A DNA stretch of 43,142 nucleotides. Source: Candidatus Heimdallarchaeota archaeon. GTDB taxonomy: Archaea; Asgardarchaeota; Heimdallarchaeia; Heimdallarchaeales; Heimdallarchaeaceae. Positions 6,838 to 24,681 of this stretch are shown piece after piece (position 1 is the stretch's first letter; every line of letters starts with the position of its first letter). Position numbers and translations under genes: made by a program. The DNA lies in assembly GCA_019057815.1 (NCBI GenBank), contig JAHLWR010000029.1:1-43142 (forward strand). Direction: 5' to 3'. Under the pieces are notes generated by a model that did not search any database, had not been told where the DNA came from, and saw nothing but the letters and a program-made list of their open reading frames with translations.

Positions 6838-7428
6838 ATGAGTGATAAATCCTGCCCTTACGAAAATGAAATAACCTTTATTATATACCAACAGTTTTTC
6901 AGAGAACCAAACCACATAATAGATAGAAGTGGAAAAAAGAAAATCAAAGTTAAGAATTGCGATATAGTAATTAAGAAGCTGAAAGAAAAAATCATCGATC
7001 ATTGCTTTCTGTTTGTAGAAAGAAAAGAAAAAGAGTTTATTAAAGCACTTGGAGAGGATTTCGGGATAGAAACAAGCACCATTGTAGAACATTATACAGC
7101 TCAAATTGAAAGTTTAGGAGCAATGGAAGATGAAGATATGAGTATTAAAATGACAATGGCTTTAAGTGGGATTATTTCTGTACTGCAAAAACAAGAAATA
7201 AGTAGGTCTCATTCAATATTACGTGAAAAAATCGGAAAAGCAGTTACAGACAAAAGATTTACAGAGATTCTAAACATGTGTGCACAACATGCAGATAATG
7301 ATTTATCATTATTGCATAATCTATCAATCTTAACAAAATATTCTCAAATAGTAGATGTTCAAGTCTCACCAGTATATTTTGATAAACATTCAAAATTAGT
7401 TATGAAAAAAATACTAAAGCTTGTTTAA
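6838..7428 (+). CDS. Hypothetical soluble protein (196 aa)
   Basis: ATG ORF with protein-like composition; 15-nt convergent overlap with the next gene. Confidence 0.7.
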   Translation: MSDKSCPYENEITFIIYQQFFREPNHIIDRSGKKKIKVKNCDIVIKKLKEKIIDHCFLFVERKEKEFIKALGEDFGIETSTIVEHYTAQIESLGAMEDEDMSIKMTMALSGIISVLQKQEISRSHSILREKIGKAVTDKRFTEILNMCAQHADNDLSLLHNLSILTKYSQIVDVQVSPVYFDKHSKLVMKKILKLV

Positions 7429-8871
7429 GGAATTAAGAGTCAACTTTTTCTTATTTCTAAATATACTTAGCACATGAACCTCTTTATTTTCTCTAATAGA
7501 GCCATTTTGAGGATTTAGTGTACTTCTTGTAACATTCTGTTTGATAAAATCATTTTGTTGCTCTACTATTGTACTTGAAATATTAGATATTGAAATAAAT
7601 ACATCTACAGAATAGTGATCTGAACCTGTGTTAGCGTGAGGTGTATCTCCTGTTGTTGAGTTAATTAAACTCTCTGCAAAAAATTGATTTACAATAATGT
7701 AGTCTATCCTTGAATTGTATCTTGAATCTGTATGACCATAAGTGTGACCAATCTCTGTGGGGTTTAGCGTTCTAAAAACATCAGTAAAAGTATGTATTGT
7801 TGAAGAGTATTGTCCATAGACTGGGTCATCAGGGCAGAGGAGCATAGTTAGAGGACCATAACCCAAATCGCCTATTGGAGCTAAATCTCCAGTATCAAAA
7901 GGTGAGAATGAATTTATATCACCTAGATAGATAATCGGAACGTCTCCTAATTCATCCATGTAATTAATTATCCCTTGCTGTTCTAACACTCTTCGCAAAG
8001 TGTTATTAGAAGATTGCGTATCTCCCATTGCTTTAAGATGCGTACCTATGAAATGTGTAACCGTACCACTTATGTTAACAACACCATCAATAAACGGATG
8101 AGTAACCATATATGTACTATTATCGTCCAAAATCACTGAAGGTATATCTATGAAATCTATTATTGGATATCGACTAAGTATTGCTTCCCCACTGTAAGTG
8201 TCAGTGTAGACTTGTGAAGTATACCCTCTAAATGGTGCTTCTTCATAGAAATGCATGTTGAAATCGTTAACATACCTCCTTAAACGCATGTTATTACTAT
8301 CATCCCAAATACCAGTTTCTATACAAACCATGATATCAGGATTTTCTTCATAGACAACTTCTTTCCAATCTGGATTTTGTCCTCCTCCATCGATATTGTA
8401 TGTCATTAACTTGAAAATATCTGAAGGTGGATCATTGATATAGTTATCAACTATTACAACAATTTCAGTTTCATTAACATAACCACTTGTACTAACAGCT
8501 TTTGCTAATAATGTATGTGGTCCATCTGAGAATTGTGTTGTATTCCAAACAGTTGAGTTCGTCTCTGAAAATAGCGTATTATCGATGTATATCGAGTATT
8601 CAAGCTCCTCAACTTCACAAATAGCATTTTTATCAGAGTAACATTTTTCGATTTCTCCTGAAGGATAAATCACAGTAACCTCTGCTGTAAAGCTAATGTT
8701 AACAACACCAGAAGAAAGTTTTGTAATTGATGGTTCATCAAATTGCATGTTAATAGAGACAACTGTAGAGTGCCTTATACTAAAGTAAGTAATAAGACCT
8801 ATAGAAGATGTAATAATGATAATACCAGTAATTATTGAAAATATTTTGATGTTTAACTTCATTTTTCTCAC
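7414..8871 (-). CDS. Membrane-anchored endonuclease/exonuclease/phosphatase (EEP) family protein with Ig-like domain
   Basis: N-terminal TM helix; Ig-like WNTTQFSDGPHTLLAKA; EEP motifs TYNI, CIE, THLKA, LGDINS, RIDYI, SDH. Confidence 0.87.
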   Translation of the reverse strand: MRKMKLNIKIFSIITGIIIITSSIGLITYFSIRHSTVVSINMQFDEPSITKLSSGVVNISFTAEVTVIYPSGEIEKCYSDKNAICEVEELEYSIYIDNTLFSETNSTVWNTTQFSDGPHTLLAKAVSTSGYVNETEIVVIVDNYINDPPSDIFKLMTYNIDGGGQNPDWKEVVYEENPDIMVCIETGIWDDSNNMRLRRYVNDFNMHFYEEAPFRGYTSQVYTDTYSGEAILSRYPIIDFIDIPSVILDDNSTYMVTHPFIDGVVNISGTVTHFIGTHLKAMGDTQSSNNTLRRVLEQQGIINYMDELGDVPIIYLGDINSFSPFDTGDLAPIGDLGYGPLTMLLCPDDPVYGQYSSTIHTFTDVFRTLNPTEIGHTYGHTDSRYNSRIDYIIVNQFFAESLINSTTGDTPHANTGSDHYSVDVFISISNISSTIVEQQNDFIKQNVTRSTLNPQNGSIRENKEVHVLSIFRNKKKLTLNSLNKL

Positions 8872-12032: not shown

Positions 12033-13151
12033 ATGGGAAAAAATAGTATAACAAGAGAAAAAATGAGAAAAAGATTAATTTTTCCCAAAGAAATAATAAA
12101 AGGAATAAGTGTAGCCACACTCATTCTCTTATTTCTTAATGTAGTAACAGCTGATGTAACACAAACAACTAGCAATTATTCTGAAGGATATCCTTCTTTG
12201 ATTGCTTCTACTCCTCAAGAATCTATTGAAATTACTTCAGATTACAACTTTACAGATTATGGCTTTCCAGGGACAGGAACATCTGAAGATCCTTATCTTA
12301 TTGAGGATTACAATATCACAACAACAGATGAGAATGGTATTTTTATCACTGAAACCACTAAACATTTCATTATTCGAAACTGTTATGTTGATGCTTATCG
12401 AATGGGTATTTTTATCGATGATGTTGCTGAAGGTACAACTACCATTGTTAACAACATTTGTACAAACAACCAATATGGTATCTTTGTACAGTATTCAGGT
12501 TCTTCTATTGTCTTTAACAATACTTGTAAAGAAAACAACTATTATGGTATTAATGTTGATACTTCTGGTTTGTCTCTTATAGATAGCAATACTTGTACAA
12601 ACAATGATGTAGGTATCAGGTTGGACGATTCTCCTTCTTCTACTATCTCTAACAACAACTGTACAACTAATAATTTTGGTATCTGGTTATTGCTTGATGC
12701 TTCATCTTCTTCTATCTCTAACAACAACTGTACAAACAACAATGTAGGTATATATTTGTGGTATTCGAATGATTGTGTTCTTTCTTACAATCATTTGCAA
12801 GAAAATTTTAAGTATGGAGTAAAACTAGAATCAAATGGATTCAATATTATACATAACAACAATTTCACTGATAACATGTATGAAGGATCATCACAAGCCT
12901 ATGATGATGGATTTAGAAACACTTGGTACGACACTGAAACTTTGGAAGGCAATTATTGGTCAGACTATGACGGAACTGGTAATTACTCTATTGATGGTTC
13001 TGCAGGATCATTTGATCTTTACCCTCTTGAGGAACATGAGGAATCGTCTACAAGTGAAATACAATTTAGCTTTTTATTTGCTCTCCCGATATTTATAATT
13101 CCTTCACTTCTCACAAGAATAATATCAAGCAAACATACGAAAAAACAATAA
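12033..13151 (+). CDS. NosD-like right-handed parallel beta-helix surface protein (paralogue 1)
   Basis: Signal peptide, GFPGTGTSEDPYLIE, repeated I.NNxCxNN.xGI units, GNYWSD, C-terminal TM with basic tail. Confidence 0.87.
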   Translation: MGKNSITREKMRKRLIFPKEIIKGISVATLILLFLNVVTADVTQTTSNYSEGYPSLIASTPQESIEITSDYNFTDYGFPGTGTSEDPYLIEDYNITTTDENGIFITETTKHFIIRNCYVDAYRMGIFIDDVAEGTTTIVNNICTNNQYGIFVQYSGSSIVFNNTCKENNYYGINVDTSGLSLIDSNTCTNNDVGIRLDDSPSSTISNNNCTTNNFGIWLLLDASSSSISNNNCTNNNVGIYLWYSNDCVLSYNHLQENFKYGVKLESNGFNIIHNNNFTDNMYEGSSQAYDDGFRNTWYDTETLEGNYWSDYDGTGNYSIDGSAGSFDLYPLEEHEESSTSEIQFSFLFALPIFIIPSLLTRIISSKHTKKQ

Positions 13152-13162
13152 GATGTATTATG

Positions 13163-15172
13163 TTAATAATTTTCCTTGTTTCCTCTTAGTTTAAACTGTC
13201 TCCAACTTTTTTTTATTTGTGGGTAAATCAATAAGAAAACATAAGAGAGGGTAGCAGAAATTAAAATAATTAACGACCAAGGGAATAAATCAGAAATCCA
13301 ATGTCCATTCGCAATAGCGTGAATAAATAGTACTATTATCATCAAATAGCCAAAGTATTTGTGAATTATTTTCGCTTTTTTCCTTTTACTAGTTTTGGTT
13401 TTTTTCACTAATAACCATACACTTAACCCTAAATAAATAGGGCTTAACCACAAAACAATTCTCGCAACATTCATTGCAATATTGTATAAGTTAACGTCTC
13501 CTCCCATTGAGAAATTAAGTAATGTTGAACTAAAGAAAGCCCAAAAACTTATTCTTGATGGATTTTCAACAATGGTCCACCCTCCATGATCTAAAAAGAT
13601 GTGAACAAATATAGAACAAATAGAAAGAGAGATGAATCCAACATGTAGACTGATTCTTCTTTTTCTTCTGATTTTTTTCTTAAGAGATGGAACTGTGAAA
13701 ATATGAGCTGTATATAGTGCAGCTATAGCTAACCAAGCGAATATATCACCCAAATTTTGAATTATTATTCCAGAAACTCCATCGCTAACTTCTATTTTTC
13801 CTACTGAAATAACATATACTGGTCGTTCTTCAGCTGTAGCTGAGACAATATAACGTATATTTGAATCATCAAAAGCTCCAATAACAACCATTCCCAAATT
13901 TAAAGCATAACAGCTCAAATACAAGTTTTGAGCAATTGCACCAACATCAAATAGCGCTCTTTGCTTATTAACGGTATAAGTATTATCGCCTTCAGTAAAC
14001 ATTGTTTCATTTATTGTAAGAACTATCACCATTGAAGCATCTAGAACCCATGGTTGTTGTAAGCTTGAATCCCATAAATCTTCTTTTCTAGAATCATTAC
14101 TAATTTGATTAAAAGACTGTTCTACTACATCATAGTGATACATTCCCTCTTCCATTTCAGAAACATTATTGAGAGAAGTATAAGCATTAATTGACCATTT
14201 ATCAAAAAAAGTATCAAAAACTAAATCATCTACTAAAGGGTCGATTCTGCCAATACAATAATTATGTAGATAACTTACTTCTAATTCATCTATAGATTCA
14301 GGAAGGTAATCTCTTATAGATTTACGTCCTTGAATAGCCTCTTCAACTGATGTAGTAGGAGGGATTATAGAATATTTAATGTTCATTGAAACATCTTTTA
14401 ATCCCAATTTTAGATGTTTGGGAAGAAAATTATCTGTTGTTAGATTAGTCTCCCATGCAAAAACAATTGCTAGAGGTTCATACTCAATATCATAGATTGT
14501 CTGCAACTCTATTGAATCAAAATCAAGAACTATTTCTAGTTTTACACTTATAGCTTTTGCTTGTATTCGCATATTTTGCAATAAATGACCAACCTCTAAA
14601 TGAACATACTTGATTCCTCTATTTCCATATTTAGTAGTGGTTCTTTCATATTCTGCAGTAATTAGGTAAAGTACAGGAGCATTTTCTACAGAATTCTTTT
14701 TTTCCTCTGAATCCGAACCTGAAATGGATTCAACAATTGTGTTGAAAGTGGGTTGAACAGCCTGCATGTCTAAAGAATGATCTGAAGGTTCATAATGGTA
14801 AGTACCTCTTTCGATGTCATCATTACTAACATTTGAAGAGAAAAAAACATCTAAAGGGTAGGTTCCTCCAGCACTAGGAACGGAGCGGAAAGGATAGTGA
14901 GTTATACCTTGAGCTGCCCAGAGCAGCTGAGAAATGGTGTTTCTGCTGAAACTATCATTAATGAGCTCAATTTCTTGATCAAAACCTTTGAAACTTAGAA
15001 TCTCATCCAAGAGAACATCACTGCTTGTTATTGGATCATTTAACGGAGTGGAAGCAGCATAACAGTTTGAGAATTCATAGTTTCTGATATTTATAATCAA
15101 TAATGTTAAGGTTATGAAGAACACCTTATTTACGAGTTTATTAGAGCGTACTCCTCTTAACATTCCCGTCAC
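13163..15172 (-). CDS. Tandem SagB/ThcOx-type nitroreductase domains fused to a His-rich ferric-reductase-like transmembrane domain
   Basis: QLLWAAQG, PSAGGTYPL, KYGNRG..LEVGH (domain 1); RKSIR, GAIAQNLYL, IGAFDD (domain 2); about 5 C-terminal TM helices with two H-x13-H pairs. Confidence 0.85.
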   Translation of the reverse strand: MTGMLRGVRSNKLVNKVFFITLTLLIINIRNYEFSNCYAASTPLNDPITSSDVLLDEILSFKGFDQEIELINDSFSRNTISQLLWAAQGITHYPFRSVPSAGGTYPLDVFFSSNVSNDDIERGTYHYEPSDHSLDMQAVQPTFNTIVESISGSDSEEKKNSVENAPVLYLITAEYERTTTKYGNRGIKYVHLEVGHLLQNMRIQAKAISVKLEIVLDFDSIELQTIYDIEYEPLAIVFAWETNLTTDNFLPKHLKLGLKDVSMNIKYSIIPPTTSVEEAIQGRKSIRDYLPESIDELEVSYLHNYCIGRIDPLVDDLVFDTFFDKWSINAYTSLNNVSEMEEGMYHYDVVEQSFNQISNDSRKEDLWDSSLQQPWVLDASMVIVLTINETMFTEGDNTYTVNKQRALFDVGAIAQNLYLSCYALNLGMVVIGAFDDSNIRYIVSATAEERPVYVISVGKIEVSDGVSGIIIQNLGDIFAWLAIAALYTAHIFTVPSLKKKIRRKRRISLHVGFISLSICSIFVHIFLDHGGWTIVENPSRISFWAFFSSTLLNFSMGGDVNLYNIAMNVARIVLWLSPIYLGLSVWLLVKKTKTSKRKKAKIIHKYFGYLMIIVLFIHAIANGHWISDLFPWSLIILISATLSYVFLLIYPQIKKSWRQFKLRGNKENY

Positions 15173-15366: not shown

Positions 15367-16344
15367 CTATTTTTTCTTTGTCCTTTTTGAAATTGTTCTT
15401 GTGAGTATTAAGGGAACTATAGAAAGTAGTAGAGTTAGTAAAACGATTTGTGGATATTCAACTATTACAGGTTCCTCAAGAGGATATAAGTCAACTGAAT
15501 TCGCAGAACCATCAATAGAATAAGAACCTGTTCCTGACCAATCTGACCAATAGTTACCCTCTTGTGTTACAGAGTTATACCAGAAGTTGTTAGTAGAATC
15601 ATCATATGCTTGTGAAGTGCCTCCAAGATTATTGTCTACGAAAGTATTATGGTGAATAAGATTAATGTCAGAACCAGATCTTAAGTATACTCCATATCTT
15701 TCATTTTCTTGTAGAAGGTTGTAAGTAACGACACAAAAAATAGATGACCAAAGACAGATGCCGTCCCTGACATTATTATTGCATGTGTTGTTTGCAACAG
15801 TCGCACTACCAGAAGACCCAAGATGGATGCCAAAGTCGTTGTTGTTGCACGTGTTGTTGGCAACAGTAGCACTACCAGAAATGTGAAGATAGATACCATC
15901 ACCGATATTGTTACAGCACGTGTTGTTAGCAATAGTAGAACTATCAGAAGCCACAAGCTCGATACCTATCAAGTTGTTGCTGCACGTGTTGCTAATGACA
16001 GTTGCTGTTCCATCAGCTACATATTCGATAGAAATTCCATTTTCTTCTGCGTCAACATAGCAGTTACTAACAATGAAATATTTCGTTGTTCCAGTGATAG
16101 AAATGCCTTCATAACTTGTTGTTGTAATATTATATCCCTCAATAACATAAGGATCTACTTCCGTTCCTGTTCCTGGAAAAACTTCGAAATCGCTATCACT
16201 AGTTATTTCAATAGGACCGTGAGGTGACAACTCTAACGAAGTAGGTCTATAATCATTCTCTTCAGCAGTTATTTGTACATTGATATTCGATGCATAGATT
16301 GCGAGTGTTAGTATTAGTAGAATTATTATTGTTTTCTTCTTCAT
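15367..16344 (-). CDS. NosD-like parallel beta-helix surface protein (paralogue 2)
   Basis: MKKK signal peptide, FPGTGTEVDPYVIE, ANNTCNNN repeats, GNYWSDW, C-terminal TM and KRTKKK. Confidence 0.87.
   Translation of the reverse strand: MKKKTIIILLILTLAIYASNINVQITAEENDYRPTSLELSPHGPIEITSDSDFEVFPGTGTEVDPYVIEGYNITTTSYEGISITGTTKYFIVSNCYVDAEENGISIEYVADGTATVISNTCSNNLIGIELVASDSSTIANNTCCNNIGDGIYLHISGSATVANNTCNNNDFGIHLGSSGSATVANNTCNNNVRDGICLWSSIFCVVTYNLLQENERYGVYLRSGSDINLIHHNTFVDNNLGGTSQAYDDSTNNFWYNSVTQEGNYWSDWSGTGSYSIDGSANSVDLYPLEEPVIVEYPQIVLLTLLLSIVPLILTRTISKRTKKK
15781..15880. repeat. Intragenic 66-bp-period repeat (duplicated beta-helix coil)
   Basis: 15781-15814 and 15847-15880 match at 31/34 nt (both encode SGSATVANNTC). 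Confidence 0.75.
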
Positions 16345-19557: not shown

Positions 19558-21687
19558 TCATAACATTTTTTTATCCAATTGTACTTTCGCATCTCTATCT
19601 TTTTCTTTCATTCGTTTGTCCATAGATGAAGGTTTGGAATCAATTTCTTGTTTTAGAGTTCTATTTTTTCTTCTGAAATGTTGTTTTTTCATATTTCGTT
19701 TTATTCGATTATAAACTACCCATGTAACAAAGGAGATTATCACACTTCCTACAATTATTTCCATAATTAACCAAGAATAGTTTATTTTTACTGGAAATAA
19801 CGTACTGTTGAGAGGGAATTTGTCATATACTTTTTCTCCATCGATTTTGTATCTCTCTCTACCATTCCAAACACTCCAATAATTCCCCTCCTCTGCTAAA
19901 GAATCAAACCATAAGTTATCAATTTCATTATCATAAGCTTGAGAACTTCCTCCAAGGTTATTGTTTATAAAACGATTGTGATGAATTGAATTATTATGAG
20001 AATATTCTAAACTAACTCCATAATAGCTATTATTTTCAAACAAATTGTATATTATGCTAATATTATAACTACGATAGGCTTCTATCCCATTTTTGCAATA
20101 AATAATTTCATTATTTGAAATATTGACTGAAACAGCACTACGAAGAAAAAAACCACTATCCTCATTATTACTGATTGAGTTACCAAAAATACTAACATTA
20201 TTGATATGTGATAAATACAATCCCGCTCTTTCGCAATTTGATATGTTATTATCAGATATCACTGAAAATGAACAAAGATACAAAGAAATACCAGTATCAC
20301 TGCTAATATTAACTAAATTATTAGCGATTTGAGTATGTTCAGTATTCATTAGAGAAATGCCACTGAAATAACTGATATCAATGGAATTTTGTAACATTTT
20401 ACTAGAATTACAGTCACAAACACGTAAACCATAATTGTTTTCCTCGAAAGAGTTACATATAATGGAACTTTCATCTGAATAATAAATATATAAACCATAA
20501 CTATTTCTCTCAAAAGAGTTGTTTGTAATTAAACATTCATCAGAGCTGCCAACGAATAGACCATATCTGTTTTCCTCAAAAGAGTTGTTTGTAATAGAGC
20601 ATGTAGAAGATTCTATTACAGCTATTCCATAAATAGAGTTCTTAAAACAGTTGTTTTTCTCTACAATAGTCATAGGAGAATATAAAAGCTCTATTGCAGT
20701 ATCTCGAATGTAGCTACACGTGTTATTAATTACTGCACATTGAGAACAATTTACTACTGAAATTGCTTTCGATATCCCACTCATTTCTTGATTACTAATT
20801 GTTATATTGAAGCAGTTGACAAGTATTATTTCACCGCTTGCATCTGAGATATTTGTGTTATTAAGATCAATTTCAAATCTAAATGGTTTATTATTCACAG
20901 TGTTATTTGAAATGAACAAAGATCTATAATCGTCTAGAGAATCTAGAGTTATATCAATCCCACAGGAGCTACATGCGTTATTTTCTAGTGTAATATTTGT
21001 AGCTTTATTGGCTATCCTAATTCCTTCTCGGTAATCTCCTACACAGCTGTTATTGGCAATAATACCATCAGATGTTTCAGAAAAATATAATCCTGTTAAA
21101 TCATTACTCGTGCAAGTATTATTTATGACACTAAATGAAACAGAATTGCTAATAGATACGCCTATGTCATTTCCTTTAAAAGTATTATTTGAAATTGTTA
21201 CCTGATCTGAGTTTTTAATTATTATTCCATAAGAAGTCCAAATCGGATTGTTATTGTAATTGCAGAAATTATCTCTGATTATTGCTGTTCCTTCAGCTAT
21301 ATCACGAATATGAATTCCATATATTGATGCGTCAACATATACATTCTGAATAACAAAAAAAGAAGTTGTATCTGTTATAAAGATACCATAATCGTTTGAA
21401 GTTTCAATATTTAAATATTCAATCTTATAGGGATTTTCTTTTGTACCATTTCCCTCAAAACCCAGAGTAATGAAATCGAGATTAGAATTAATTCTTATGG
21501 ATTCCAAAGGTTCTTCAGCAAATGTATTACGTTGTTGATTATTTGAATTACTAATTATGACTGGTATTGTAGTAATAGAGCTTAGAAACAAGAGAATAAC
21601 GATAATGCATCCAAGTTGGAAGCTTATAATTCCGTTACAACTCTTTCTCCTAATAAACACTTTCTTGTTTGTAAGCATCCTACTCAA
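19558..21687 (-). CDS. NosD-like parallel beta-helix surface protein, long form (paralogue 3)
   Basis: GFEGNGTKENPYKIE, many I.NN...GI coils, SQAYD...EGNYWS, C-terminal TM and basic tail. Confidence 0.85.
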   Translation of the reverse strand: MSRMLTNKKVFIRRKSCNGIISFQLGCIIVILLFLSSITTIPVIISNSNNQQRNTFAEEPLESIRINSNLDFITLGFEGNGTKENPYKIEYLNIETSNDYGIFITDTTSFFVIQNVYVDASIYGIHIRDIAEGTAIIRDNFCNYNNNPIWTSYGIIIKNSDQVTISNNTFKGNDIGVSISNSVSFSVINNTCTSNDLTGLYFSETSDGIIANNSCVGDYREGIRIANKATNITLENNACSSCGIDITLDSLDDYRSLFISNNTVNNKPFRFEIDLNNTNISDASGEIILVNCFNITISNQEMSGISKAISVVNCSQCAVINNTCSYIRDTAIELLYSPMTIVEKNNCFKNSIYGIAVIESSTCSITNNSFEENRYGLFVGSSDECLITNNSFERNSYGLYIYYSDESSIICNSFEENNYGLRVCDCNSSKMLQNSIDISYFSGISLMNTEHTQIANNLVNISSDTGISLYLCSFSVISDNNISNCERAGLYLSHINNVSIFGNSISNNEDSGFFLRSAVSVNISNNEIIYCKNGIEAYRSYNISIIYNLFENNSYYGVSLEYSHNNSIHHNRFINNNLGGSSQAYDNEIDNLWFDSLAEEGNYWSVWNGRERYKIDGEKVYDKFPLNSTLFPVKINYSWLIMEIIVGSVIISFVTWVVYNRIKRNMKKQHFRRKNRTLKQEIDSKPSSMDKRMKEKDRDAKVQLDKKML

Positions 21688-22341: not shown

Positions 22342-24681
22342 TCATTTATTTTTCAAATAAACTCCTTTGATTAATCTTAGTCTTCGTTTGTAAATAAAAC
22401 CTATAACAACCAGAATAGTAGGGAACATATACCATGGAGAAGTTGAACTATAAGTGTAAGGTTCGTAATAATATAGTGTATATTCTTCAGTTATATCCCA
22501 GTTTCCAGTAATATCTTTAGCATATATTTTTATTAAAACGTAATTTTCTGCAGTTCCGGGAATAGTTGCAGCATAATCTCCATCTGAATCAAGAGACATT
22601 GTAACATTAGTATACGGACCACCATCAATGGCATATGAAAGTACAACTGTTTCTATACTGTTTAATCCTTCAACTGTACAAGTTATCGTAACTTCCTCAC
22701 CAATATCAGGGTAGTAAGGGTCAGAATCAAAATCTGTTATAAATGGCCCCTCTAAAGCTTCAATTGTTAAACTGTAAGCAACACCAATATCACCACTGTA
22801 GAGATAAACTAGTATATAATAAGAACCTGTATATGGTGCAAAAAAGCTAATTTCCTCATCACTTAAATACTCTTCACTATGGTCAAGTACACTTCCAGTA
22901 TCATCATAAATAGCAAAATCTAGGTCAAAATTATTGTAATCAAATGCTAAATATACATCCAAAAATTGTCCTTCTATTAATTCAATTTCGAAGAAATCAT
23001 CATCATAAAGATACAAATCATATTCATTGTTCACATCTAGGTAAGCTGCATCCAAAATATTATCATTATCTTCATAGATATCGTCAAAATACTCTATTTC
23101 TGATATTGTTAAAGAGAATGTTCCATAACCGTCGTAACTATAAATAAAGAAGAATACAGTAGTTTCAACAGAAATTGGTAATAGGGCAGTTTCAGTATCT
23201 CCACTAGATCCATAATAACAATCTACAGAAACATCACTAAGTAAATCAAGGTAGCTCTCTTCATTCCAAACTAGCATATCTAAATCAACTGTATAATCCA
23301 TTGTAAGCACAGCTTGATATGCATGATCAGGAGTATTAGCTGGAAGATCTGCTTGAACAAACATATAGCTATATGAAGATAAATAGTCTGTATAAACACC
23401 TGGTGAAGGGTAGTTTAACGATGCAATATATGATTCCAATTCAACACGCCAATCAGATATGAAATTTTCCCAATCTGTATCATCAACAAAGTCTAAACCA
23501 TAGTACAAATTATTATAAAAACTGATTATTTGATTTGAAGGATTGGTATAGAAATCAAAAGCATAGTTATAGGGTAGTAGAGGAAGGAATATCCACAGAC
23601 CATAAGGATCTGAAACTAGACTTGATTCAGAAGCAATAAGAGCGTTATCTAGCACCGTTTTAACATTATAAGCTGCAGTACCAAGTGAACCTCCTATTTG
23701 TGTTTGAAGTTCAGTTAGAAATTCATAAAATTCTATTACAAAATTCGGCATGTATGAGTCAGCAGTCATCAAAACATCATAAATAGCAGCCATATTTGAT
23801 GGAAGTGCTGCACTCAATTCACTTGATAATGAATTGATTTCTGGAACAATGCTTCCTATAATAGAGGTGTTGTATGCCGACATAGTAACATCAAGACCAT
23901 GATACATATACGAGTCTACATATTCAGTACAAATAGTCTGAGCTAATTCAACTACTGTCATTGATGGATTAGCAATCAGTTGGGAGATTATTTCATTATA
24001 TGGCCAACCATCACCAGGTTCTGAATAAAGACTCGATAGATAAACATCACAATAATCCTTCAACTCATAGACAATTTCTATTTGTCCCATAACACAAGCA
24101 TCAAATCCTATAAGGTCAAAATGAAAGCCATCTAGTGCTGTCTGTATTTCCTGAATTGTTAAGAAATCATAATCGCCGTCATCCCAGCAGGTTCCATCTA
24201 AACCTCTTCCATGATCCCAGAATATAAGAGCTGTTCGATTAGCTGGAAAAGCTGAAATACCCCAAGTCACAAAATTACGAAGATTTTGAGGATCCCCCAT
24301 ATTTAGTTCTCCAAGAGATGTATTAACAGGAGTGTTTATTGTTTCAATGTCAGAATCTGGTTGAATTACATAGTACCTTGTTTCTGACCAATCTTCTGGG
24401 TAATCAGGAACTTCGTAATTTTCATCACTTCTATCAACCATAACAACGATATTAATATCATCGTTTGTTCCTCCTCCAAGCTCCATCTCATTTATATCTT
24501 CAATTACACAAGGTTCCAAGTTGTTGTCTCCAGACATATAAATGAGAAATGTCCAATTTTTATTTATAGCGGAAATAGAAAGGTTATTGATTATCTCGCT
24601 AGTCTGAGCTTCAGATTGTATAAAAGGTGAAGCAAGTAATAGAAACATAAGCAATGAAAGAGTAGATGCAATGTTTTTCAT
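22342..24681 (-). CDS. Secreted, membrane-anchored clostripain-family (C11) cysteine peptidase with PPC-like domains
   Basis: WTFLIYMSGDNNLE, ELNMGDP, WDHG (catalytic His), FDACVMG (catalytic Cys), EPGDGW; DLDFAIYD..YTGSYYI PPC-like domain; C-terminal TM. Confidence 0.9.
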   Translation of the reverse strand: MKNIASTLSLLMFLLLASPFIQSEAQTSEIINNLSISAINKNWTFLIYMSGDNNLEPCVIEDINEMELGGGTNDDINIVVMVDRSDENYEVPDYPEDWSETRYYVIQPDSDIETINTPVNTSLGELNMGDPQNLRNFVTWGISAFPANRTALIFWDHGRGLDGTCWDDGDYDFLTIQEIQTALDGFHFDLIGFDACVMGQIEIVYELKDYCDVYLSSLYSEPGDGWPYNEIISQLIANPSMTVVELAQTICTEYVDSYMYHGLDVTMSAYNTSIIGSIVPEINSLSSELSAALPSNMAAIYDVLMTADSYMPNFVIEFYEFLTELQTQIGGSLGTAAYNVKTVLDNALIASESSLVSDPYGLWIFLPLLPYNYAFDFYTNPSNQIISFYNNLYYGLDFVDDTDWENFISDWRVELESYIASLNYPSPGVYTDYLSSYSYMFVQADLPANTPDHAYQAVLTMDYTVDLDMLVWNEESYLDLLSDVSVDCYYGSSGDTETALLPISVETTVFFFIYSYDGYGTFSLTISEIEYFDDIYEDNDNILDAAYLDVNNEYDLYLYDDDFFEIELIEGQFLDVYLAFDYNNFDLDFAIYDDTGSVLDHSEEYLSDEEISFFAPYTGSYYILVYLYSGDIGVAYSLTIEALEGPFITDFDSDPYYPDIGEEVTITCTVEGLNSIETVVLSYAIDGGPYTNVTMSLDSDGDYAATIPGTAENYVLIKIYAKDITGNWDITEEYTLYYYEPYTYSSTSPWYMFPTILVVIGFIYKRRLRLIKGVYLKNK

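Follow-up and report, generated by a model that had tools for sequence, protein, structure and literature searches.

Two SagB-type nitroreductase domains predicted to lie outside the cell and fused to a putative two-haem membrane domain in an Asgard archaeon

We analysed a 43,142-nucleotide stretch of DNA (hereafter, the window; contig JAHLWR010000029.1 of assembly GCA_019057815.1) from a Candidatus Heimdallarchaeota archaeon, focusing on one open reading frame (ORF) on its minus strand. From its N-terminus, the product has a signal peptide or anchor, a pair of SagB-type nitroreductase domains and five transmembrane (TM) helices. An earlier note made from the sequence of the window had described an N-terminal signal or anchor, two SagB-type domains and about five TM helices, and we found the same parts by direct reading, by Pfam and NCBIfam models, by hydropathy and in an AlphaFold2 model. 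Overall, we consider it probable, though well short of certain, that the product is a single-chain surface flavocytochrome b, in which electrons would cross the membrane between an inner partner and flavin mononucleotide (FMN) held outside. The features of the ORF are as follows, with the direction of each helix as predicted.

13163..15172, minus strand: whole ORF, 669 residues from a GTG codon, stop codon within the range
15050..15163, minus strand: N-terminal Sec-type signal peptide or signal anchor, residues 4 to 41 (sequence read directly)
14477..14941, minus strand: SagB-type nitroreductase domain 1, residues 78 to 232 (TIGR03605 match, invariant columns, domain 1 of 3eo7)
13796..14347, minus strand: nitroreductase domain 2, residues 276 to 459 (PF00881, invariant R/S/R/Y, domain 2 of 3eo7)
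13166..13780, minus strand: five-helix membrane domain, residues 465 to 669 (AlphaFold2 model, fold matches)
13688..13744, minus strand: TM1, residues 477 to 495, outside to inside, then an inside loop with 8 lysines or arginines (K/R) in its 14 residues
13592..13648, minus strand: TM2, residues 509 to 527, inside to outside, with H510 (13643-13645, inner) and H524 (13601-13603, outer)
13406..13489, minus strand: TM3, residues 562 to 589, outside to inside, preceded by a K/R-poor outside loop of about 35 residues with two short helices
13307..13369, minus strand: TM4, residues 602 to 622, inside to outside, with H604 (inner), H618 (outer) and the invariant N622
13223..13279, minus strand: TM5, residues 632 to 650, outside to inside, followed by a basic cytoplasmic tail

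Translation probably starts at the ATG at 15163, which gives a protein of 666 residues, and a public protein collection holds this 666-residue form. Here, we number residues in the 669-residue form, counting from the GTG. The signal has a basic n-region and a hydrophobic core of 13 residues, lacks a twin arginine, and is followed by a conserved LPxP motif. Every complete relative begins in the same manner, with a basic stretch and 13 to 22 hydrophobic residues and then the LPxP motif, and in two relatives with truncated gene calls the signal is still encoded upstream in frame. At L001:258-402 and L003:1105-1250, a stop codon immediately precedes the in-frame signal peptide, and in the L001 DNA the first in-frame ATG, GTG or TTG is a GTG at codon 47, past the signal peptide. 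Gene callers consequently truncated both proteins; either translation starts at a non-canonical codon (ATT) or the sequence contains a local error.

The ORF scored 160.5 bits on the NCBIfam SagB model TIGR03605 (cut-off 78.4) and 91.6 bits on the Pfam Nitroreductase model PF00881 (cut-off 23.5, E 8e-26), matching each model in two stretches. Domain 1 retains AAQGIT, PSAGG (14864-14878), K-Y (14627-14632) and GH..QN and has lost RxSxR. Domain 2 retains RxSxR (as RKSIR, 14312-14326) and the C-terminal GLG..GAF block, and its PS motif is degenerate. Across a full-length alignment of 22 sequences, R283, S285, R287, P99 to G102 and Y182 are invariant, with RxSxR confined to domain 2 and both PSAGG and K-Y confined to domain 1. 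We take the invariant RxSxR, PSAGG, K-Y, GH..QN and GLG..GAF of the ORF to be flavin-site elements of the nitroreductase fold, in which RxSxR is presumably the clamp that binds the FMN phosphate. The full-length model (predicted local distance difference test score, pLDDT, 80.5) matched the tandem nitroreductase 3eo7 (Foldseek E 1e-20), which was also the top PDB match of a profile search (E 4e-48, both domains aligned); single domains of the model matched 8cqs, 3hoi and BmdC at a root-mean-square deviation (rmsd) of 2.4 to 2.8 Å. Because the motifs are split between the two domains, and because the single-domain bacterial relatives described below bear all of them on one domain, the sequences fit a tandem pseudo-dimer with one complete, predicted FMN site.

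The database name of the protein, SagB family peptide dehydrogenase, implies an azoline dehydrogenase acting on thiazole/oxazole-modified microcins (TOMMs) or other ribosomally synthesized and post-translationally modified peptides. The TIGR03605 match and the conserved K-Y motif agree with this name, as does the presence of McbC, ThcOx and BmdC among the structural relatives of the SagB module. TOMM enzymes work with YcaO cyclodehydratases, however, and the genome of the window (3.74 Mb, 95% complete) gave no match to YcaO (PF02624); given this absence from a nearly complete genome, we rejected a TOMM role. In addition, seven loci of diverse family members have no cyclodehydratase or precursor-like gene as a conserved neighbor, the predicted site lies outside the cell, and the ORF scored only 74.5 bits on TIGR04511 against a cut-off of 240. 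We regard a role in peptide modification as scarcely credible. The tandem nitroreductase 3eo7 (Anabaena Ava_2154) and three SagB-type oxidases (McbC, ThcOx/CyaGox and BmdC) share the fold and the two-domain layout of the module, but they are soluble and cytoplasmic, with neither a signal peptide nor a membrane domain.

A word-indexed search returned approximately 15 full-length relatives at 28 to 90% identity, and the named ones belong to bins of Heimdallarchaeota, Hodarchaeota or Promethearchaeota. An exhaustive phmmer search of 1.84 billion representative proteins with the membrane domain found seven proteins, six of them fusions of 597 to 673 residues and one a fragment, and no stand-alone or otherwise-fused membrane domain. 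Profile searches for shorter or longer partners, in which word-sharing candidates were scored, yielded only fragments or the same fusions. The earlier note had proposed a survey of Asgard genomes, and in our survey of the phylum the membrane domain was present in 20 of 400 genomes, belonging to 9 of 85 genera. The reading frame spans 638 to 674 residues in 18 of these 20 carrier genomes; the other two frames, of 218 and 395 residues, are probably cut by contig ends. The genome of the window has one copy of the gene. In all of the sequences surveyed, the fusion is restricted to Asgard archaea and the membrane domain is always joined to SagB domains. We found no conserved neighbor genes across the seven diverse loci; because the neighbors differ at every one of them, the gene appears to act alone.

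Five hydrophobic helices in the C-terminal part of the ORF were apparent from hydropathy and from the AlphaFold2 model of this part (pLDDT 85, predicted TM-score 0.76), which consists of five long helices and two short ones in an outer loop. Both H-x13-H pairs reported in the earlier note are present as exact strings, H510-x13-H524 on TM2 and H604-x13-H618 on TM4. We aligned the membrane domains of 14 sequences (17 to 85% pairwise identity, mean column identity 39%), and the only invariant columns were H510, H524, H604, H618 and N622. The four histidines, whose conservation had been named as a point to check, also stay invariant in the 22-sequence alignment; H529 (13586-13588), at the outer end of TM2, is almost invariant. 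As judged from these alignments, the conservation of the four histidines and N622 is more than chance.

We read the topology from K/R counts summed over the 14 family sequences. Inside loops contain 218 K/R in 635 residues, compared to 35 in 737 residues for the outside segments. The K/R fraction is 0.45 in the loop between TM1 and TM2, 0.36 in the loop between TM3 and TM4, and 0.24 in the C-terminal tail, compared to 0.02 in the segment before TM1, 0.06 in the loop between TM2 and TM3, and 0.04 in the loop between TM4 and TM5. The SagB module ends approximately 10 residues ahead of TM1. Read with the positive-inside rule, this distribution predicts that the SagB flavoenzyme module lies outside the cell, in agreement with the placement of the FMN module in the earlier note. 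TM2 and TM4 are parallel, each leading from the inside outward, and H510 and H604 would therefore sit at an inner level and H524 and H618 at an outer level, depths that fit two bis-His haems stacked across the membrane, with haem binding putative. The opposite topology would place the SagB domains in the cytoplasm and make the protein an ordinary membrane-tethered NAD(P)H nitroreductase. Characterized SagB and nitroreductase enzymes are cytoplasmic, which is in keeping with such an arrangement; we nevertheless consider it very improbable, given that the K/R bias is strong and consistent across the 14 sequences, that relatives keep the N-terminal signal, including those in which gene callers overlooked it, and that bacterial relatives have their SagB domain after a twin-arginine TM helix.

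We compared the model of the membrane domain to 48,161 PDB chains. Plant cytochrome b561 (4o6y) ranked first (Z 15.5, rmsd 3.1 Å, 161 residues aligned) and human Dcytb (5zlg) ranked second (Z 14.9), with Z scores above the level that is common among helical bundles. The next matches were STEAP4, STEAP1, SpNOX, Escherichia coli CybB, NOX5, FdnI, DUOX1 and a designed two-haem bundle; matches to STEAP- and NOX-type folds had Z scores of 10.6 to 11.9, inside the range usual for helical bundles. In a Foldseek search with the same domain, the top match was STEAP4 (E 0.067), no match fell below E 0.001, and we dismissed matches to G-protein-coupled receptors as noise (rmsd 16 to 17 Å). The domain had no match among PDB sequences even at E 10, and a look-up in the ESM Atlas gave no usable match. 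The earlier note's assignment of the domain to a two-haem type thus agrees with its fold, which is nearest to those of two-haem cytochromes b. Two helices that contribute two histidines each are the layout of ferric-reductase-type and cytochrome b(bc1)-type bundles. Although b561 and Dcytb are the best structural matches (approximately 160 residues at an rmsd of 3 Å), b561 takes its four histidines from four helices, one from each, whereas those of the ORF lie on two helices only; moreover, the ORF has no sequence match to b561, which lacks a fused enzyme domain.

Sub-threshold Pfam matches of the membrane domain fell mostly on two-haem families. Among 13 family members, we found such matches to DUF4405 (PF14358) in eight, to Ferric_reduct in two (E approximately 0.03) and to Ni_hydr_CYTB in one; the remaining weak matches were scattered, with one or two members each. 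A domain check suggested in the earlier note thus returned the two nitroreductase/SagB domains, with DUF4405, Ferric_reduct and Ni_hydr_CYTB all below threshold. The ORF itself scored 15.7 to 18 bits on DUF4405, short of the gathering score of 26.7, and the best family members in the phylum survey scored 21 to 25.7 bits. The TM4 signature H604-x13-H618-x3-N622 is common to most of the genuine Asgard DUF4405 proteins that we examined, some of which have glutamate in place of the asparagine and one repeat of the tandem forms histidine; TM2 has H-x13-H but lacks the asparagine of the DUF4405 signature. Profile alignment with hhalign against genuine Asgard DUF4405 proteins put the histidine helix in register, but the match was weak (35 columns, P 4.5e-4, probability 33%), as was the match to a tandem DUF4405 protein (P 5e-3). 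Because the cut-off was not reached and the hairpins appear to be inverted relative to DUF4405, we did not file the membrane domain as DUF4405. Purified DUF4405 and FezC proteins bind haem b, and it was proposed that they carry electrons in the membrane for flavoproteins outside the cytosol (PMC11334425).

Two further sets of Asgard proteins resemble DUF4405. The first (family f20, at L028:598-2010(-), L030:270-1583(-), L034 and L036) consists of proteins of approximately 475 residues that combine two genuine DUF4405 repeats with a fifth TM helix. Their conserved C-terminal domain, approximately 270 residues long, is probably outside and has no Pfam match; this family is another fusion of a cytochrome and a surface domain. 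The second consists of ORFs of 452 to 465 residues with near-threshold DUF4405 matches in four genomes of close relatives from the archaeal family of the host (G031, G033, G034 and G035; e.g., G034:C86:3876-4031), and the genome of the window has no counterpart of them.

In the flavocytochrome reading, the polypeptide is predicted to be exported by the Sec route, and its two SagB-type halves to fold outside the cell as a pseudo-dimer. They would share one complete FMN site, with domain 2 giving the RxSxR phosphate clamp and domain 1 giving PSAGG and K-Y. In the membrane, H510 and H604 would ligate an inner haem b and H524 and H618 an outer haem b; the haems would serve as an electron wire, such that the outside flavin could turn over without NAD(P)H or O2. 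Electrons would pass outward from a cytoplasmic donor to the haems, to FMN and then to an external two-electron acceptor, for which quinones and humic compounds, metal chelates, nitro and azo compounds and O2 are candidates. Alternatively, electrons may pass inward from an external substrate, as in a SagB-style dehydrogenation. By analogy with MsrQ, NOX/FRE, b561 and DUF4405-type systems, we judge outward flow to be the likelier direction. Haem would be scavenged, and flavin would be loaded at the outer face.

Several observations weigh against this reading. No two-haem Pfam family reached its cut-off in the ORF or its relatives, and the charge distribution suggests that the histidine hairpins appear to be inserted the opposite way to those of canonical DUF4405 proteins. 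Flavins in the nitroreductase fold usually destabilize the semiquinone, which makes them awkward partners for one-electron haems. In the genome of the window, we found neither HemB nor HemC, and we found no Ni_hydr_CYTB, NarI-type cytochrome or cytochrome bd. In the absence of these other b-type families, the ORF product would be the only recognizable membrane b-type cytochrome of the genome, and in the absence of HemB and HemC its haem would have to be scavenged. Likewise, 18 of the 20 carrier genomes lack HemB, and only two have both HemB and HemC. MqnA/D was detected in none of the 20 carriers; this counts against a quinol as the inner donor, but the classical menaquinone pathway was not searched, therefore a quinol may yet serve. 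Flavin supply raises a similar problem. The genome of the window lacks TatC, the signal of the ORF lacks a twin arginine, the genome has no match to ApbE (PF02424), and the ORF protein has no match to FMN_bind. We therefore rejected export by the twin-arginine translocation (Tat) route in this host, by which FMN could have traveled with the folded protein, as well as covalent flavinylation by ApbE. The haem supply in the genome of the window is the main reason that our confidence is not higher.

The same gaps bear on whether the membrane domain is a haem-free polytopic anchor for an exported flavoenzyme that acts on external substrates only, with no electrons crossing the membrane. In such a protein, the histidines and asparagine would serve as ligands of a metal ion, as the lining of a proton or ion path, or in a structural role. 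The lack of tetrapyrrole synthesis in the genome of the window and in 18 of the 20 carriers would then need no explanation, nor would the lack of another b-type membrane cytochrome in the genome of the window, nor the failure of all Pfam haem families to reach their cut-offs. However, two haems are classically held by H-x13-H on two parallel helices, the closest folds are those of b561, Dcytb, STEAP and NOX, and the H-x13-H-x3-N helix is common to DUF4405, which binds haem. A plain anchor requires neither five helices nor invariant columns that are mainly histidine. Furthermore, the presence of cytochrome bd in genomes without HemB and HemC suggests that haem is obtainable: six carriers from one Asgard genus (G060, G062, G064, G072, G073 and G076; e.g., G072:C27:15433-16728) encode a full-length cytochrome bd subunit I and lack HemB and HemC, which makes haem salvage plausible in Asgard archaea. 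Known haem auxotrophs likewise encode cytochrome bd (PMC4668044). On balance, we consider a haem-free anchor unlikely.

A different possibility is a pseudo-enzyme: the SagB module would lack a cofactor or act as a sensor and would bind an external ligand or peptide, with the membrane domain as relay or anchor. The absence of a visible route for loading FMN outside (neither TatC nor ApbE) suits this possibility, as do the clear degeneration of one of the two symmetric sites and the low confidence with which a motif loop (residues 89 to 100 of the 666-residue form) was modeled. Yet the invariant residues are the motifs that we read as flavin-site elements of this fold; relatives bear Tat signals, which are typical for cofactor-loaded cargo; and the protein has no cytoplasmic output domain, its inside loops being only 13 to 19 residues long. 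We find a pseudo-enzyme improbable, and we retain the flavocytochrome reading in what follows.

The earlier note had also held that SagB enzymes are normally cytoplasmic and soluble. The ORF product is predicted to be exported, as that contrast implied, but this gene is not alone in encoding an exported SagB-type protein. The closest unfused relative (P0017, L039:7001-8278) is a tandem SagB protein with 34% identity, a twin-arginine signal and no membrane domain. Its contig is archaeal, with TFIIB, AFOR and MTTB genes as neighbors and no adjoining cytochrome gene. The twin-arginine signal marks this SagB clade as predicted to be exported and cofactor-bearing.

We detected a second fusion in bacteria. 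Six proteins of 367 to 409 residues from Leptolyngbyaceae and metagenomes (P0021 and P0023 to P0027), labeled only as SagB/ThcOx family dehydrogenase in the database, start with a DUF4405-like hairpin that carries H-x13-H-x3-N/T-W. P0026 scored 21.3 bits on Pfam DUF4405, and the hairpin aligned to Asgard DUF4405 over 64 columns with hhalign (P 1.9e-4). The hairpin is followed by a basic linker, an invariant RR..LL, a third helix rich in glycine and alanine, arginines, and a single SagB domain, which is homologous to domain 2 of the Asgard protein (hhalign probability 99.9) and bears all of the flavin-site motifs that the Asgard protein splits over two domains. Nitroreductases are homodimers, therefore two bacterial chains would rebuild the content of the single Asgard chain. 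In the bacterial proteins, the membrane part precedes the SagB domain, the reverse of the Asgard order; this opposite order implies that the two fusions arose separately, which argues for functional coupling of the modules. A twin-arginine helix accompanied by charges is the signature of membrane proteins that are integrated jointly by Sec and Tat, including Sco3746 (PMC5449189). We propose the bacterial family as a candidate for an unreported class of dual Sec/Tat-inserted flavocytochromes. At two loci, both from Leptolyngbya (L041:7001-8224 and L042:7001-8176), the genes upstream, in divergent orientation, encode a CHASE3 histidine kinase and a response regulator of the GerE type.

The earlier note presented the ORF as a candidate new system. 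In the literature that we searched, we found neither a transmembrane cytochrome or ferric-reductase domain described as joined to a SagB or nitroreductase domain, in Asgard archaea or elsewhere, nor a paper that links SagB or nitroreductase domains with Asgard archaea; in this sense, the fusion is new. The principle is known from MsrPQ, Sco3746, NOX and DUF4405-type systems. Because a two-haem module that serves an extracytoplasmic redox enzyme is well known, the ORF does not constitute a categorically new system. Sco3746 is a fused protein with haem and molybdenum cofactor, five TM helices and two haems, and it belongs to a dual Sec/Tat family (Tooke et al. 2017, PMC5449189). Like MsrPQ and Sco3746, the ORF has a polytopic histidine module, predicted to hold two haems b, that would feed an extracytoplasmic redox domain; Sco3746 further resembles the ORF in joining the two parts in a single chain and in having five TM helices. 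The catalytic domain of MsrPQ and Sco3746 is molybdopterin-based, whereas that of the ORF is a SagB-type flavin module of the nitroreductase fold. In addition, the catalytic domain of Sco3746 is C-terminal and Tat-targeted whereas that of the ORF is N-terminal and Sec-targeted, and, unlike MsrPQ, the membrane part of the ORF stays below the cut-off of the Ferric_reduct model.

DUF4405, MsrQ-like and PepSY-like cytochromes accompany flavinylated extracytosolic partners (PMC8238504; PMC11334425). Together with FezC, they are membrane cytochromes with two haems that work for flavoproteins beyond the cytoplasm, as predicted for the ORF; DUF4405 also shares with the ORF family the signature of its histidine helix, and members of the ORF family score near the DUF4405 threshold. 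The partners of DUF4405-type cytochromes are ApbE-flavinylated proteins of the FMN_bind type encoded in gene clusters, whereas the flavoenzyme of the ORF is fused, with no ApbE or FMN_bind, on an apparently inverted hairpin that scores below the cut-off. A single chain of the NOX, FRE and STEAP proteins holds a flavin together with two stacked bis-His haems, as predicted for the ORF, and these proteins transfer electrons across the membrane through histidine pairs on two parallel helices with a spacing of 13 (also 12 in NOX). In these proteins, however, the flavin domain (FAD, NADPH) is cytoplasmic and has the ferredoxin-reductase fold, and the histidine pairs lie on TM3 and TM5 of six TM helices. 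In the ORF, a flavin domain of the nitroreductase fold is predicted on the outside, and the pairs lie on TM2 and TM4 of five.

Asgard archaea are believed to live as fermenters that hand reducing power to partners. The way in which electrons leave their cells matters for syntrophy models of eukaryote origins, and a membrane wire joined to a flavoenzyme on the outer face would offer a concrete candidate for this exit that can be tested. If the flavocytochrome reading is true, the nitroreductase/SagB superfamily would extend outside the cytoplasm, with haems replacing NAD(P)H or O2 as the partner. A host without haem synthesis, Tat or ApbE raises the question of how its cofactors are acquired. 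A further reading, which we regard as possible but doubtful, is that Heimdall-group and related Asgard archaea, lacking all three, build a surface flavocytochrome from scavenged haem and externally loaded flavin and use it as an outward conduit to external acceptors or syntrophic partners. In that case, these archaeal relatives of eukaryotes would have a previously undescribed type of extracellular electron transfer, in a protein resembling a NOX turned inside out, with a parallel bacterial version exported by combined Sec and Tat routes. The bacterial family of reverse order offers genetically tractable relatives and, possibly, a new class of dual Sec/Tat substrates.

In the window, the gene is surrounded by a cluster of genes for predicted surface proteins, at the following positions.

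12033-13151, plus strand: predicted surface protein
15367-16344, minus strand: predicted surface protein
19558-21687, minus strand: predicted surface protein
22342-24681, minus strand: predicted surface protein
7414-8871, minus strand: predicted surface protein

Two NosD-like beta-helix surface proteins flank the gene and are kept only in its closest relative; because these flanks are not conserved any further, we dropped both a Nos-like system and a surface-protein substrate as links to the ORF. Three members of the cluster are NosD-like beta-helix proteins, each with a C-terminal anchor and a basic tail; another is an anchored clostripain-type (C11) peptidase that also has a PPC domain, and the last is an anchored protein of the endonuclease/exonuclease/phosphatase family.

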